A stretch of 64,000 bases of DNA from an uncultured Methanoregulaceae archaeon (GTDB taxonomy: Archaea > Halobacteriota > Methanomicrobia > Methanomicrobiales > Methanospirillaceae): positions 96,001-160,000 of the forward strand of contig OY970343.1 of assembly GCA_963717525.1 (NCBI GenBank), in the 5' to 3' direction. Shown in pieces: positions 24,501 through 57,500 of the stretch; the first letter of the stretch is position 1; every line of letters starts with the position of its first letter. A program made the position numbers.

Positions 24501-27500
24501 TACCTGCTCACCCTGTAGGGTATCCTTGAGGAAGTCTATGAGAGAAGTTCTGTGCAAAATATCGAGATGGGAAAATGGACTGTCCAGGATGAGCGGCAGC
24601 TGACATTTTGTAGATTTTCTTAATCCAGCCAGAAGAGACAGCCAAAGAACAATCCGGTCTCCTGTCGACAACGTGGGCAAACAATCGTAATTATCGCGTT
24701 TCAAATGAAAGATCCCATTCTCATCAAATTCAATCGAAAAGTCAGAATCTGTATATTTTCTCTTGAGGGCGGTCCATACCGCTCCTGAAACAATCTCAAT
24801 TATTTTCTCGTTAGAGATTTTTGAAATTTTCGATCCAAACGTGACTATATTTTCTATCAGGTTTGTTGGGTTCTGCTCTCCATTCCAAAGATAGAGGAGA
24901 TCTGATTCACGGGGAAGTTCATAGTCACCATCAACCCACAGGGATTTTCGCAATTCTTTAACCGCGCGCACGTCGGAAAAAAGTGAAATATCTTCATTTA
25001 ACCATGAATATTCGCACGTTCTCTCAATCTTCAGCCTTACGTCGGAATTTGCTTCAGAGAGGAACACCTGAACCGAAACTTCGACTTTTTGATGATTCTT
25101 CAACGATTTTAACAACTGATGGTTTATGAGAGATGGATCCTGTGTCGAGATATCCTGATTACCCTGACTAAAAGCCCACCGCAATGCATCCACGATAGTA
25201 GTTTTACCTGAACCACACGGCCCTTCTATGATATTAACAAATTTTTCAGGAGAATGCCCAAGAACAATCTCGTTTTTTCCGAGGAACGACCTAAAATTGT
25301 TTATAACAATCTCATCAATTATCAGGGATGGGCATGTTAAATCCATAATTTCTACTCTCCGAACGTCTAACGTTTTTCCGAATTTGGCGTTTCGATTAAT
25401 ATCTTTTATGGTACAGCCGGTCCGGCGATCCGGCCCCGGATTTCAGCCGGAATCTCCCGGTGAATTTCTCCGACGTATATCCGGGAAGTGTTGAAAAATG
25501 TGTCCTCTAGGATTATCCTAGAGGACTTCTTTTAATTCCTATTAAAGGAATAACGTAAAATCTAAAATTTTAGAGAGATCTCTGCCTAGAGAATCGCTGG
25601 AAAATCGAACCGGAAACCGGGCGGGACATTGAGCCCCTCAACTTATCAAATCCTATCGCTCGGATCCAGTTTGCGGCCTGTATTTTTCCCGCGGTTTAGG
25701 ATGTATGGAACTTTTCAAAAATGAGAGATGAACTGAGGCTGATACTCCACTGCCTGTCATGAAATCCGCGGCATTATCAGAACTCCCTCATTATCTTTAT
25801 CGCACAAAATTCCCCGCACATTGTGCATTCCGCCTCACCATCAGATAACTCGCGCGCCCTCCCGGGATCCATGGAACACCGGATCTGGCCTTCGCGATCG
25901 AGCGCTGCCCGTAGTTCAGAGACAGTTTTATCCACAGCGTCACGGCCGTATTTTACCGTATCACCAATATGGGCTGCAATCCGGAAAGCAATGAGCCCTT
26001 CTTTTACCGCAGCCGGTGTGGGAAGGCCGAGGTGTTCGGCAGGAGTTATATAACAGAGATAATCAGCTCCGGCAGCACTTGCGGCACTCCCACCGCACGC
26101 CCCGGCAATATGGTCGTAACCAATGGCAATATCTGTGGGCAATGGTCCGGCAACAAAAAGCGGGAATGGGGACAATCTCTTTTGATACTTGATATATGAC
26201 AGGATACGGTCACTCCGGATATGACCGCCGCATCCTTCGATGATAACCTGAACCCCTCTTGCCAGCGCCCGGTGTGCGAGTACAATATTCTGGCGGATCT
26301 CGGCAACCTGCATTTTGTCTCTCCGGTCATGGATACACCCGCTCCGTGCGGTGTTTCCGAGTGAAAGGACAATATCGTGCTTCCGGCATATCGACAGGAC
26401 TTCATCAAAATGCTCCACGAACGGGTTCTCGCACTGGTGAATGAGCATAAATGCGCTGGTGATCGAACCGCCTTTGGATACCATGCCGAGCACCCGGTTC
26501 TTTTTCCGGAATCCGTCGAGCATCTCTCTGCTGACGCAATGGACAACAACGGAACTTATCCCCGCCTCTGCCTGCTTCCGGAGAGTCGTAAGGATATCGC
26601 CGGAAGTCATCTCCTTAAGGCCATTTTCGACAACAGCCTGGTATACCGGGACGGTTGTAATGGGAAGCGTGGTAACAGAACATATCTCCCCCCGGATTGC
26701 ATCGATGTCACCGCCCATCGAGAGATCGCTTATCGTGTCAGCGCCAAATTCCTCCGCGATCCGGGCCTTCTTGATCTCATCGCCGACATTTATCTTCCCT
26801 GTAGAAGTACCGAGATTGACGTTGATCTTGGTACTGAGACCCCTGCCGATTCCTACCAGCCGGTCACCGCGTTGCATGATCACCGTGCTGCCATCGGCTA
26901 TCTGCCGGCAGAGGGTCGCGGAATTCACACCTTCCTTCTCTGCAACCAGCCGCACCTGTGGGGTAATTATCCCTGTTCTTGCATGCTCAATCAGTGTTTT
27001 CATCGTGCACTCGTTCCGGAATATCCGGTTAGTTGTGGGGGTTCAAAGGATATGGATTCTGACTTTTATGTCCGCACCGGATCTTCTAACAGTACCGATA
27101 TGGATACAACCAGAATTGACCAAAAACACTTGTCATGAATCAATAAATAATTGGCTTTGTAGAAGACCTTCCTTCTCCGAAGTAAACAACTGACCTCAAA
27201 AAGTTAAGGTACGGTGTATCCCTACCTTTTATGCAAATAAAAGGAAATATCGTGTTATTCAGTTCTGGAACCAATACAATTTACATCTGAAAATTATTGA
27301 TAATAATTAATCTTACTTCAGATGGGGAACTCGAAGAAGAATGGGATTGAGGAAGCCTAGATATATGATGGGTAGGCGAGAATACGCTTGAATAAGTAAT
27401 GTGATACTTACAGGGATAATATCCGGTTTTTCCTGTTACGGGTATTAAGTTTTTCAATCAGAAGTCGAATTTTGGATAAATTTCCTGCATTTTGACCCCT

Positions 27501-54500: not shown

Positions 54501-57500
54501 ACCGTTCACGATTACTGCCTCATTCCCGCAAACATCTTCCGCTTTAATTACCATCTCTCAGGGGCAGGATCCCGCGTGGGGTCCAGATTTCCCGATGTAT
54601 TGCGATAATTTGGCACTGAGTAATGAAAACACTCAAGAAGCAAACACAATGACCGCTCAGGTGTCAAGTCCGAAAACAACCTTCACTATCCCTGATGGGA
54701 GCGAATGGGCCGGAAACACGACGAATTCCTCTATCAAAACCTGAAAAGAATGTAAATAGACCGAAGTGAATAACGTCACTTGAATAAAGGATCCAATTAA
54801 TCCTTTTTCAATCAGTCTGACCGGTAGATGAGATATGAAAACGCGAAGGTATTTTGGATTTCGTGGTGTCAGCACAGGATATACCCGGCGAGCTGTAAAA
54901 TTATTCCTTGGCTTCTTCCTGCTGATCCTGCTTCTAATCCCGACTGCATCAGCGCAGGATATGATGTTCCGATACGACGCCAGTCGGTACTGGAGATTAC
55001 AGTCCAGTCGCCGGCACGACAGGCACCACGATATCGCAGATCTGGAGTTATGCGACCGGAAACGCTGTGTTTTCTGGCCCGACGATAGCGAATGGTGTCG
55101 TATATATCGGAAGTTTTGATGACAAGGTATACGCGCTGAATGCTTCTACCGGGCTGCAGCTCTGGAATTTTACGAATGGAGGTGATTCGCATTCCAGCCC
55201 TGCGGTAGCGAACGGCGTGGTGTATGTCGGGAGTGGGAATTACAACGTATACGCACTGAACGCTTCTACCGGCATGAAACTTTGGAATTATACGACCGGA
55301 AGCACTGTGGCATCCAGCCCTGCGGTAGCGAACGGCGTGGTATATGTCGGGAGCGAGGATCACAACGTATACGCACTGAACGCTTCTACCGGCATGAAAC
55401 TTTGGAATTATACGACCGGAAGCACTGTGGCATCCAGCCCTGCGGTAGCGAACGGCGTGGTGTATGTCGGGAGCGAGGATCACAACGTATACGCACTGAA
55501 CGCTTCTACCGGCATGAAACTTTGGAATTATACGACCGGAAGCACTGTGGCATCCAGCCCTGCGGTAGCGAACGGTGTTGTATATATCGGGGACGGGAAT
55601 GGAAAAGTATATGCGCTGAACGCCTCCACCGGGACGCAGATCTGGAATTATACGACTGAAAACTCTGAGTATTATGAGTATATCACCAGCCCTGCGGTAG
55701 CGAACGGCGTGGTGTATGTCGGAAGTGATGATGGCAAGGTATATGCGCTGAACGCCTCCACCGGGACGCAGATCTGGAATTATACGACTGAAAACTCTGA
55801 GTATTATGAGTATATCACCAGCCCTGCGGTAGCGAACGGCGTGGTGTATGTCGGAAGTGATGATGGCAAGGTATATGCGCTGAATGCTTCTACCGGGCTG
55901 CAGCTCTGGAACTATGCAACCGGAACATTTGTAAGTTCCGACCCGGCGGTAGTGAACGGCGTTGTATATATCGGGGACGGGAATGGAAAAGTATACGCGC
56001 TCAACACCAGGGTCCCAAATGCAATCTCCCCCATAATATATATTGTTTTTTTTGCATTTATCGTGCTTCTTTGTGTGTATTTTGCTTATCAGATTGTAAA
56101 AAAAAGGAGGAGAAGGGTGCTGATAAGTTCGCGGGACGATTGAACCGGATGCAAATCCATCAGATATTCCTCAAGAAATCTGGTTCTGATAAGTTAGCGT
56201 TGTTGACCGATTTTTCATATCGTTAAAATTATCCTGTCGACCACCGAAGTAACAAGACCTATAACCTCCTTTAACTGTTATCGCCCGGACCCGGTTTACG
56301 GGCCAGATTTTTCTGGCGGTTTTCCCGATATAAAATTCTCTAAAGTTTTGGATATTACACATTCCTTTAATAGGAATTCAAGGAAAAACACAGTCCAAGA
56401 GATCCATATACCCTAAAATAAGATCATTTTTGAGTGGGGAATAGAGAATATCGAATTTCTAGACCTTCGAATTTTCCGGTGAGTTAATACGATTTGTTGG
56501 AGGAGACGGTTTTCGGGTTTTACATTCTCCATGACCCCATGTGCTAAATGCCTCTTTCAATTTGGGGTAAATTTTTGTTTTCCAGTTTGAATGCTTGGAT
56601 GATAACGTCAAAGGTTTTCCACAAATGGAGCAGGGGACAATAAATTTTTCTTCATTCTCTAATTCCTTGTTCTTTGTTTCTAATTCGAGTGCATATTCTC
56701 GAAAATTATCACATTTATTTGCCAATTTCGATGTTTCCTCATTGAGGTCCATCTTTTCATGAATAAAATCAGTCATCCACTGTGAAAGCGGTTTACCTGA
56801 TGCCGCAATAATCGAATCAAGCCGTTGTTTATCTTCTTTCTTCACCCTGAATGTTGTCGAAGGATTATTCTCCCGATACTTGATTTGAGAAGGGTACTCC
56901 TCTTTCTTTGTCTCTTTTTTCATACTGGGCCTTCCGAATGCTCAAGGTGACTTTACATATCATACTATAAAATGCCACTAGAAATCTATACTGCAATCTA
57001 TCGGAGAATCTAGATGGAAATCTGTATGAGAATCTATGCGTAGCAATCTATACTTTGAGCATAAAATTTTGCATGCTCGATTTGGAGTATTATAGAGACA
57101 GAAAACCACCTCGTTCATAACACGTAGTTGTCCATGGTTCTCCCACTCTTTCGGAGTGTAAGGAAAGATTCAGATTATAACATCCAAAAGGTACTAAACC
57201 ATAATATCCCTCACTGGAGAGTGCCTGGTGACCTGCATTGAGCGCTTGAAAGGGTAAATGATTATTTTCTGAAGACCAGCAGGATAGTAAAAAATTATGT
57301 TTTCTTTGATTTTTTCTTTGATGCCAACAGCGTTGCTGCTATTCTCCCGCCTTCTGCAATTGATTCGTCTTCTTGTTTTCTCATATCCTCAGACATCAGG
57401 TCTCTCTTCTGGTAATCGAGAGTGTCCACGATATCTGCAAGCAGGTGAAGTTCTTCTTTCAGGGTGTCAATCTGTTCAGTTTGTGCTTTCAATTCAGCGA

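Follow-up and report, generated by a model that had tools for sequence, protein, structure and literature searches.

What are the palindromes that lie between genes and gene blocks in three islands of this methanogen genome, and what recombines them? The window considered here is a stretch of 64,000 nucleotides from an uncultured Methanoregulaceae archaeon (contig OY970343.1, positions 96,001 to 160,000), and a preliminary description had read the palindromes as dif-like sites delimiting shuffled modules in a pdif-like system. We consider it probable that they belong to a Xer-type system that exchanges modules by two crossovers and sits inside integrase-driven elements; the element ends, accessory arms and xerA-adjacent site described below are additions to the earlier reading. 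The features of the window are as follows (window positions, unless given as genome positions).

24361–24400, plus strand: far terminus of the element (T-tract, A-tract, small hairpin), common to the far end of island 3 (genome position 1312893)
24414–25346, minus strand: short DndD/PbeC-like ATPase gene within the far end; its relatives adjoin sites in three other genomes
25400–25526, no strand assigned: conserved outer flank of the first site, a second accessory arm with internal hairpin, which occurs at the far end of other elements
25527–25550, plus strand: core site, class A, spacer TTCCTA (pattern match)
25551–25640, plus strand: inward accessory arm, ~90 bp, typical of class A
25777–27003, minus strand: thiC paralogue; the module 25527–27247 has a 97.2% duplicate in island 2, both ends in sites
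27223–27246, minus strand: core site, class B, spacer TTTGCA, inverted
29156–30181, minus strand: IS481-like insertion sequence, a passenger outside the site system; two further copies in the genome are identical to it
30355–30378, plus strand: core site, class B
33736–33806, no strand assigned: double site at a distance of 47 bp, with TCTGAA and TTTGCA as spacers; G078 has this mini-module too, between flanks that differ on both sides
40836–40903, plus strand: double site, 44 bp apart, spacer TTGTTA followed by class A with inward arm
41049–41537, minus strand: GNAT acetyltransferase; its 89.7% duplicate in island 2 ends at a class B site
41607–41630, minus strand: core site, class B
43636–43710, no strand assigned: degenerate double site, spacer TTGTTA followed by class B at 43687; this pair recurs in island 3
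47138–47161, plus strand: core site, class B, one arm degenerate
51799–51822, minus strand: core site, spacer TTGTTA on the minus strand; IS6-like ends abut both sides
56270–56385, minus strand: integrase-proximal class A site with inward arm (core 56362–56385); spacer identical to the 25527 site, orientation inverted
56459–56923, minus strand: orf154, small conserved protein, candidate accessory factor (RHH-like lead only, from a high atlas score)
57295–58632, minus strand: g165-family tyrosine recombinase, modeled with core-binding and catalytic fold and a long C-terminal helix
58690–58726, minus strand: integrase-side terminus (T-tract, A-tract, hairpin) with a 10-bp direct repeat common to the far terminus

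With up to three mismatches allowed, the core-site pattern gave 10 matches in the window, compared to 0.08 expected from 100 shuffles, and 31 in the genome. The three islands, together 5.7% of the genome, hold 25 of these (10 + 9 + 6), which bears out the earlier claim of multi-copy palindromic sites concentrated there, one of the 25 lying within a gene (genome position 1282186) and another belonging to an IS6-like end (1132651). Spacer lengths of 2–5 and 8–11 bp gave 1–9 matches genome-wide, the reversed pattern 12 and swapped arms 6, while a 7-bp spacer gave 26, which under a weight matrix are mostly the same sites off register. The matrix adds the window sites at 43687 and 51799, and at 14 bits or more it finds 27 sites in the islands (0–2 in 20 block shuffles) and 9 outside them, an enrichment that is partly circular because the matrix was trained on these very sites.

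Each site is laid out as two 11-bp arms around a 6-bp spacer (11-6-11). The arms are near-symmetric, without distinct XerC/XerD halves, and asymmetry is supplied by the spacer and the accessory arm. The first T and last A of the spacer are conserved (T opens the spacer in 90 of 96 strand readings), and most variation is central, as it also is in the site next to xerA. Spacers fall into class A (TTCCTA) and class B (TTTGCA), with TTGTTA and TCTGAA as further variants, and class A sites carry a conserved inward arm of ~90 bp, probably a site for an accessory protein that would control direction or synapsis. Double sites 44–57 bp apart recur. This architecture supports the view that the island palindromes have the shape of tyrosine-recombinase core sites.

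The duplicated modules, whose two copies stand beside different neighbors, bear on whether DNA has been exchanged at these sites. Their identities, as given in the preliminary description, are reproduced here: 97.2% for thiC, 89.7% for GNAT, 97.1% for the flavoprotein and 99.2% for the recombinase module (integrase-orf154). That their homology stops at the sites holds at both ends for the thiC module only; the GNAT and flavoprotein duplicates have one end each at a site, the other end of the flavoprotein duplicate being an IS6-like end. At base level, the identity of the thiC, GNAT and flavoprotein duplicates begins inside a site, and the two thiC copies differ in their central spacer bases. 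The recombinase duplicate, which had been placed as ending ~50 bp from a site center, instead stops exactly at the last base of the site's arm. Between species, in G088 and G067, a 4.6-kb segment of 89% identity stops at the outer arm. At loci picked because they hold sites, 8 out of 116 alignment ends coincide with a site in both partners, compared to 1.5% as the share of intergenic DNA close to a site (p = 3e-4). Taken together, these junctions support the suggestion that the sites mark crossover points of shared modules, both within the genome and between species. The assembled contigs of four runs contain one site joint, 25527 to 41045, which the genome already has as the arrangement of island 2. 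No new joint at a site was among those listed for 24001–44000 in these contigs, which proves nothing because assembled contigs drop rare forms.

The palindromes could instead bind a transcription factor or a chromatin protein, or act like terminators, with module borders falling near them merely because both are intergenic. The class A arms, which lie mostly downstream of a gene's 3' end, would suit such a role, as would the 108 of 116 alignment ends away from sites. We nevertheless regard this as very unlikely, since identity switches within the 24-bp core itself, converging genes flank 7 of the 13 window sites, and a two-arm binder needs no discrete spacer classes kept across species.

Judged from their termini, the islands (34, 55 and 41 kb) are transposon-like integrative elements with defined ends. 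The g165-family integrase has its own termini, short inverted repeats starting at a T-tract/A-tract, and these are paired in seven elements, with a direct repeat of 9–12 bp common to both ends; they vary between elements, islands 1 and 3 having both in common. No tRNA lies at the ends of the window's island. Since an empty target site was not seen, the outer ends are supported by these repeats and by comparing island 1 with island 3; the contigs of the four runs have no joint at the far terminus, and for 14 integrase loci our script found no far terminus within their flanks. Island 1 had been described as absent at this locus in five relatives, and a partial check agrees in that the cysS loci of four relatives carry no island sequence within 1.5 kb. 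All three islands, and four elements in relatives, share the order terminus, site, cargo, (site), small genes, integrase.

The g165-family integrase most likely moves the islands. Its R, H-x-x-R, H and Y catalytic residues are invariant in 23 aligned relatives, and the model starts with a helical core-binding domain, without an N-terminal arm-binding domain. The top fold matches are XerA, integron integrase and Cre at 12–19% identity, with Tn1549 integrase a lower Foldseek match. Does this integrase also act on the internal sites, as the preliminary description had implied by linking the terminal recombinase family to them? Such a dual, integron-like role, with orf154 or a small RHH-like protein switching specificity, could explain the shared layout and the enrichment of orf154 in site-bearing genomes (4 of 22, compared to 1 of 85 others; p = 0.006, with a query built from site-bearing genomes). 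However, the termini change with the integrase and the internal sites do not, the two have no sequence in common, and integrases merely 29–37% identical to that of the window sit with the same internal sites. As the earlier description had itself remarked, g165-type relatives often have no site nearby: one was found within the 10-kb flanks at 8 of 62 loci that have at least 4 kb of downstream sequence (some loci being duplicates) and at none of three loci of 76–78% identity. The family is present in 12 of 22 site-bearing genomes and 30 of 85 others, so the implied link lacks significant co-occurrence (p = 0.14), and the 10 site-bearing genomes without it include nearly complete ones. We therefore hold the dual role to be rather improbable.

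Of the other candidate enzymes, tRNA-targeting Zn-ribbon integrases have a site downstream at three loci only (this genome, with a 7-bp spacer, and G063 and G090, where the sites adjoin integrases of this other family), and a family search found 28 of 30 loci without a site within 1.5 kb; a small 198-residue recombinase is present in 3 of 107 relatives. Six-frame profile searches of this genome gave no tyrosine recombinase beyond those named here. A further alternative would assign the sites to IS6-like elements or a serine resolvase, given that IS6-like ends lie ~20 bp or less from the centers of three sites (genome positions 1121759, 1140118 and, on both sides, 147799), that one IS6-like end family contains a look-alike palindrome, and that the genome has two serine resolvase genes. 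This reading is largely refuted: the two IS6-type transposase genes are both outside the islands and have no strong site nearby, and serine resolvases are unassociated with the sites (6 of 22 site-bearing genomes, 19 of 85 others; p = 0.59). Serine recombinases must, furthermore, match the central two bases of paired sites, and a serine-recombinase reading is disfavored because precisely these bases are most variable and differ between the thiC copies. IS1202-family elements target pdif sites in the accessible text of PMC10132070, and by analogy the adjacency seen here would fit insertion sequences targeting the sites.

In the relatives, single core matches, which had been taken as a sign of the system, are near chance (28 of 107 genomes, reversed control 19). 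Of the 107 other genus genomes, 22 have composite core-plus-arm sites at E ≤ 1e-8, including 15 outside the training set; these composite sites are almost confined to the genus, whereas XerA and its site are order-wide. Among 1334 ORFs in 65 stretches around sites, no gene family besides ABC-ATPase and sensor-kinase clusters occurs in more than five genomes. Viral contigs gave no relative of the g165 integrase, no match to the end-site pattern, and 49 loose pattern matches, which the site profile puts at chance level (best E 0.008); plasmids gave a single weak 39-bp match, and a search against Rfam returned tRNAs only.

Host XerA is a further candidate. A different 11-6-11 palindrome lies just upstream of xerA, with matches in 96 of 108 genus genomes and in 87 of 151 order genomes, mostly once, and is the host's probable, predicted dif; cumulative GC skew was too noisy to place a chromosome terminus. 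An island site is not itself a candidate for host dif: it is not universal, and in five near-complete genomes island sites are at control level (2–10 matches, control 7–10) and not single-copy. The xerA gene is split in this assembly, and its nearest cluster representative is an intact 306-residue protein of 95% identity; the split is likely an assembly error, because at three single-base indels of the window the covering runs give the corrected reading. In a true archaeal pdif system, XerA would recombine the island sites as degenerate dif copies with the help of arm-bound proteins, as at bacterial plasmid sites. Consistent with this, XerA is the only tyrosine recombinase found in most of the fully listed site-bearing genomes (8 of 10; G079 and G097 show no other), both kinds of site share the layout and the T-first, A-last spacer, the class A spacer is one base different from the xerA-site spacer of this genome, and Pyrococcus abyssi XerA weakly binds a heterologous site. 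That heterologous site was, however, not recombined (accessible text of PMC2958812, for both statements). Moreover, the island sites score −2 to −37 under the xerA-site matrix, compared to 38 for the xerA site itself, and 215 genome positions beat the best island site. The inner arm bases also differ: the fourth arm position from the spacer is A in none of 96 arms in relatives and in 57 of 58 xerA-site arms, and the next is T in 87 of 96 and C in 56 of 58, counts biased by the picking of arms with a matrix trained on this genome. We thus consider a true pdif system unlikely. What stands of the pdif-like reading is the site shape, the crossovers and the inverted or heterospecific flanking pairs; strict pdif is unsupported, since the host's probable dif differs in sequence from the island sites, which have far lower scores.

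Taking these observations into account, the module-exchange system that we favor would have two layers. In the outer layer, the g165-family integrase would move the element into AT-rich intergenic targets, leaving the 9–12 bp direct repeat. In the inner layer, the palindromes would be core sites of a single-subunit Xer-type tyrosine recombinase. Flanked as they are by inverted or different-spacer sites, modules cannot simply loop out, and may instead move by two crossovers, with element fusion at one spacer class and resolution at another, as modeled for Acinetobacter. As for the enzyme, the terminal integrase is probably not the one, and XerA, judged by its own site, fits poorly. A recombinase that acts in trans and was not detected in these assemblies is a serious candidate if somewhat short of probable; XerA with relaxed specificity and accessory help is doubtful, and the g165 family is an unlikely choice. 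More tentatively, the system could be a genus-specific, dedicated cassette exchange apart from XerA/dif and the integrases, in which an unseen recombinase with spacer-coded sites and arms performs a natural recombinase-mediated exchange of single genes, defence and CRISPR-Cas blocks among unrelated elements, the double sites serving as spacer-class adapters.

If the favored reading is true, a methanogen lineage swaps genes for metabolism, signalling, the cell surface and defence (TIR-STAND, SIR2-STAND and CRISPR-Cas blocks) between elements via spacer-coded sites. The recombinase would then be a new one, or else XerA working on sites that differ strongly from its own site, and either outcome would give methanogen genetics orthogonal recombination sites. 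By-products are a candidate dif for Methanomicrobiales and an archaeal tyrosine-recombinase transposon family with defined ends. In the open literature (subscription papers and supplements being outside its scope), our search found no case of archaeal dif-module shuffling, and no paper that brings Methanomicrobiales, XerA and dif together; a search there for a likeness to Firmicute dif arms gave nothing.

Among known systems, integrons, archaeal ones included, place an integrase beside an array of exchangeable genes. Unlike these, the g165 integrase is far below the integron-integrase cut-off (TIGR02249: 19 bits for the island 3 copy against 265, no match for the window copy), genes lie in both orientations, and the cores are short, double-stranded and of several classes. 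The cer and psi sites, one per plasmid for dimer resolution, have a one-sided accessory region and are divergent from dif. The island sites likewise combine a core with a one-sided accessory region and are divergent from dif, but number up to about ten per element and bound cargo. Elements of the Tn916/Tn1549 type have inverted termini starting at T/A tracts and AT-rich, non-tRNA targets. Seven elements here resemble them in these short termini and targets, and in an integrase at one end, but differ in the direct repeat at both ends and in that no conjugation module was identified; the islands' integrase, as modeled, lacks an N-terminal arm-binding domain, which the IntTn916 subgroup has (accessible text of PMC8138268). 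Archaeal XerA/dif, in the accessible part of PMC2958812, which also presents cer and psi as plasmid Xer sites with accessory sequences, is similar in its single recombinase and symmetric 11-6-11 site, and the host, with such a site just upstream of xerA, resembles Sulfolobales, where dif lies near xerA (accessible part of PMC8371274). Archaeal dif is, however, single-copy and chromosomal, whereas the island sites occur in many copies, have a patchy distribution in the genus and differ in their inner arm bases.

In Acinetobacter, dif-module shuffling spreads resistance genes through host Xer enzymes. The likenesses, as far as the accessible text of PMC11705084, PMC13141974 and PMC6449649 goes, are many 11-6-11 sites on mobile DNA (there XerC/XerD sites) with few spacer classes, one- or few-gene modules between inverted or different-spacer sites, gene-free mini-modules, crossovers centered on sites, and insertion-sequence ends adjoining them; the first two sources also describe the cointegration-resolution model and report that a single spacer mismatch is tolerated. 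The differences are that the island arms are near-symmetric without C/D alternation and are not copies of the host's probable dif, that the carriers are integrated elements rather than Rep_3 plasmids, and that class A has its ~90-bp arm, accessory sequences not having been seen at two sites examined in the available part of PMC11705084. By its sequence, the system would accordingly fall outside pdif, with neither the dif resemblance nor the C/D arms, but would work as Acinetobacter dif modules do.

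A palindromic core site, with two 11-bp arms around a 6-bp spacer (11-6-11), is a real feature of the window, in which the pattern has 10 matches at ≤3 mismatches compared with 0.08 expected, all of them intergenic or at a gene edge and located between 24 and 58 kb, where GC content is low. Three low-GC mobile islands (34, 55 and 41 kb, island 1 being the one in the window) hold 25 of the 31 pattern matches in the genome, in agreement with the preliminary description of some 30 sites concentrated there. A reversed-pattern control gave 12 genome matches and patterns with other spacer lengths 1–9 each, apart from a 7-bp spacer with 26, which in a matrix scan were mostly the same sites off register. 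A weight matrix, trained on these sites and thus partly circular, found 27 sites in the islands vs 0–2 in 20 shuffles, with 9 elsewhere. The spacers, in which the first T and last A are conserved and the centre is variable, define class A (TTCCTA and variants), class B (TTTGCA, TTTACA) and class C (CTCGTA), with TTGTTA and TTCAGA as further types, and these classes are common to several species. In the window, the sites at 25527 and 56385 have identical spacers and opposite orientation, and class B sites recur as direct repeats at 30355, 33783 and 47138.

Outside the islands, we note perfect arms with a 7-bp spacer at genome 312968 (stretch L009:6968–6996), just downstream of a tRNA-Asp-targeting integrase, with a 6-bp-spacer site at the equivalent position in the closest relative, G063. 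An isolated class C site at genome 525801 (L008:7801–7900) adjoins the Ku and LigD end-joining genes, and together with a copy of the element far terminus 15 kb away, at genome 510816, it is probably a fourth, decayed element.

The thiC module (window 25527–27247) has a 97.2% copy in island 2, and the match spans outer arm to outer arm; compared base by base, the two copies have unrelated flanks, differ at a few positions in the outer arms, and in spacer and inner arm either agree fully or differ by a single base. In the integrase-orf154 duplicate, which comprises the terminal integrase and a small conserved protein gene beside it, identity extends through the site's arm to its final base, beyond which the two copies diverge. 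The earlier statement that duplicate modules stop at the sites therefore holds for both ends of thiC alone, for one end of integrase-orf154, and on one side only for the GNAT and flavoprotein duplicates, the other end of the latter being an IS6-like end. Between species, a 4.6-kb block shared by the relatives G088 and G067 (89%) ends at the outer arm, and a 47-bp double site (window 33736–33806) is found again in G078, where neither flank is the same. Across 65 stretches, all picked for holding sites, 8 of the 116 ends of shared segments lie ≤25 bp from a site in both partners, the remaining 108 lying elsewhere, compared with a 1.5% share of intergenic DNA near a site (p = 3e-4). To judge from these alignments, the core sites are crossover points of shared modules. 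Contigs from 4 of 20 listed runs, one possibly the source, on window 24001–44000 showed no joint beyond one already present in island 2. IS6-like ends also abut some sites, in small numbers, which we read as possible targeting of the sites by IS elements because of the analogy with IS1202-family elements, described as targeting pdif sites, the dif-like sites of mobile DNA (excerpts of PMC10132070).

Class A cores carry a conserved arm of ~90 bp on one side, and in all of the ten best genome matches of an arm-only profile (training set included) the arm comes immediately after a core. At the far end of an element, the first site is bordered by a second conserved flank, which contains a hairpin. 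A core-plus-arm profile detects 22 of 107 other genomes of the genus, which is called Methanoregula in the preliminary description and in the labels of homologues, at E ≤ 1e-8, 15 of them new and 7 having supplied training sequences; in the order sample it detects 3 of 12 genomes of the genus and, marginally, 1 of 138 others. Double sites with spacings of 44–57 bp are found repeatedly, both here and in related genomes. As far as conservation indicates, the recombination site of class A is longer than 24 bp.

The islands have boundaries of their own, listed here with their surroundings:

Window 24361, matching genome 1312893: terminus common to islands 1 and 3
Window 58726, matching genome 1271502: other terminus common to islands 1 and 3
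Window 24200–24350 and 58716–58800: repeated intergenic family adjoining both termini, with many copies in the genome and relatives, which may be a preferred target
Window 18625–18697 and 60252–60324: inverted tRNA-Cys genes enclosing a cysteine/methionine cluster and the island

Each terminus, read inwards, is made up of a T-tract, an A-tract and a small hairpin. A direct repeat of 9–12 bp is common to both ends of each island, and no empty target site of the islands was seen. Elements delimited by paired termini also occur in G062 (~34 kb), G066 (two, ~18 and ~24 kb) and G076 (~22 kb), each with an integrase of the g165 family, the divergent tyrosine recombinases at the island ends, at one end. 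The integrases of other elements are only 29–37% identical to that of the window, which has intact catalytic residues and a model (mean pLDDT 78) with a Xer/Cre-like two-domain fold and a long C-terminal helix. The termini vary between elements, yet the internal sites are the same in all. Among integrase loci with ≥4 kb downstream (some duplicates; elements can exceed the 10-kb flank), 8 of 62 have a site in their flanks, and three relatives at 76–78% identity have none there. By genome, co-occurrence is 12/22 vs 30/85 (p = 0.14, with kin not independent), and some tRNA-targeting integrases from a different family also have sites immediately downstream. The tie between terminal recombinase and sites implied in the preliminary description thus finds no support, and its caveat that relatives of this integrase often lack a nearby site was well placed. 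From these comparisons, we infer that the g165 integrase moves the element via its termini, the internal sites being a system common to several element types.

Several neighbouring features were also observed. The far end of island 3 directly adjoins a second element (with serine resolvase, P4-type primase and integrase; L007:10624–16681), and a third orf154 homologue is located close to a tRNA-Thr integrase at genome 53278 (L011:3278–3700), with no core site found nearby. CRISPR-Cas blocks occur as cargo (L097:10534–19817, L228, L201–L202, L221–L222), one of them inside an element of the g165 type in G066 and next to a tRNA-type integrase in G090. Island 3 carries an extra TATA-binding protein gene (L006:9237–9815), with a 91% copy at genome 501559–503025. 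In G064, cysS adjoins the homologue of window 18094–18285, so that a larger block is missing or has moved there. Splits are present in the genes for acetyl-CoA synthetase, cysS, recQ and the island 3 integrase (window 36716–38615, 58966–60236; L004:588–2011; L005:7596–8935), probably through assembly errors, since the runs that cover three single-base indels of the window, including one in acetyl-CoA synthetase, correct them.

Turning to the host, xerA (genome 1387441–1388287) is itself split in this assembly. Roughly 30 bp upstream of where it probably starts lies an 11-6-11 palindrome (L012:8354–8381, genome 1388354) in which 10 of 11 positions pair. This palindrome occurs, mostly once, in 87 of 151 genomes of the order (a control in 6) and in 96 of 108 of the genus, some two-mismatch matches among the latter being due to chance; two families in the sample of the order seldom have it (3/30 and 2/12). 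xerA lies ≤1.5 kb from it in 22 of 25 loci, and it is present at 8 of 8 xerA loci of relatives. It matches the published archaeal dif shape (PMC2958812, in part), and in Sulfolobales dif is described near xerA (excerpts of PMC8371274). It is therefore a candidate dif of Methanomicrobiales, for which searches of the open literature found none; it may also have an autoregulatory role. Several genomes of the genus have a serine resolvase gene within ~1 kb of the candidate dif. Some contain two strong copies of it, with an integrase of the tRNA-targeting family a few kb from one of them.

The xerA site and the island sites share an outer T-run, one C and an inner AA. One inner arm position, however, is A in 57 of 58 xerA-site arms vs T in 96 of 96 island arms of relatives, a count biased by a selection matrix disfavouring that A, and the island sites score −2 to −37 under the xerA-site matrix, compared with 38 for the xerA site itself. 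By these differences the island sites are not copies of the probable host dif, and the label pdif, taken strictly, does not apply. XerA is kept as a candidate for the acting enzyme, since 8 of 10 site-bearing genomes showed no recombinase besides it; none of the recombinase families compared across the genus tracks the sites. A 198-aa tyrosine recombinase with the catalytic domain only (L013:6117–6713) is present in 3 of 107 genomes of the genus.

Taking these observations together, we consider it fairly probable that there are two layers, an integrase-driven element and internal Xer-type module exchange. A homodimeric Xer-type recombinase would cleave at the spacer edges, which would account for the conserved first T, last A and variable centre, a pattern that speaks against a serine enzyme. 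Modules such as thiC and GNAT have an A site on one side and a B site in inverted orientation on the other, so that they could not loop out. Transfer would instead proceed by fusion of two elements at one spacer class and resolution at another, a route proposed and partly shown in Acinetobacter (excerpts of PMC11705084 and PMC13141974). Direction would be set by the accessory arm, for which the candidate binders are orf154 or an 84-aa RHH-like protein whose gene lies between sites in three relatives.

The ends of the outer elements resemble those of Tn916-type transposons. An arm-binding domain is described for the Tn916 subgroup (PMC8138268, in part), whereas the g165 integrase model has no such N-terminal domain. 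Short att sites are described for archaeal integrated elements, with nothing like the island-site system in the portion of that account consulted (PMC6563490). Searches of the open literature yielded no archaeal dif-module system, as the preliminary description had claimed. The closest parallel is with the dif modules of Acinetobacter, in that the island-site system works alike, yet is not a member.
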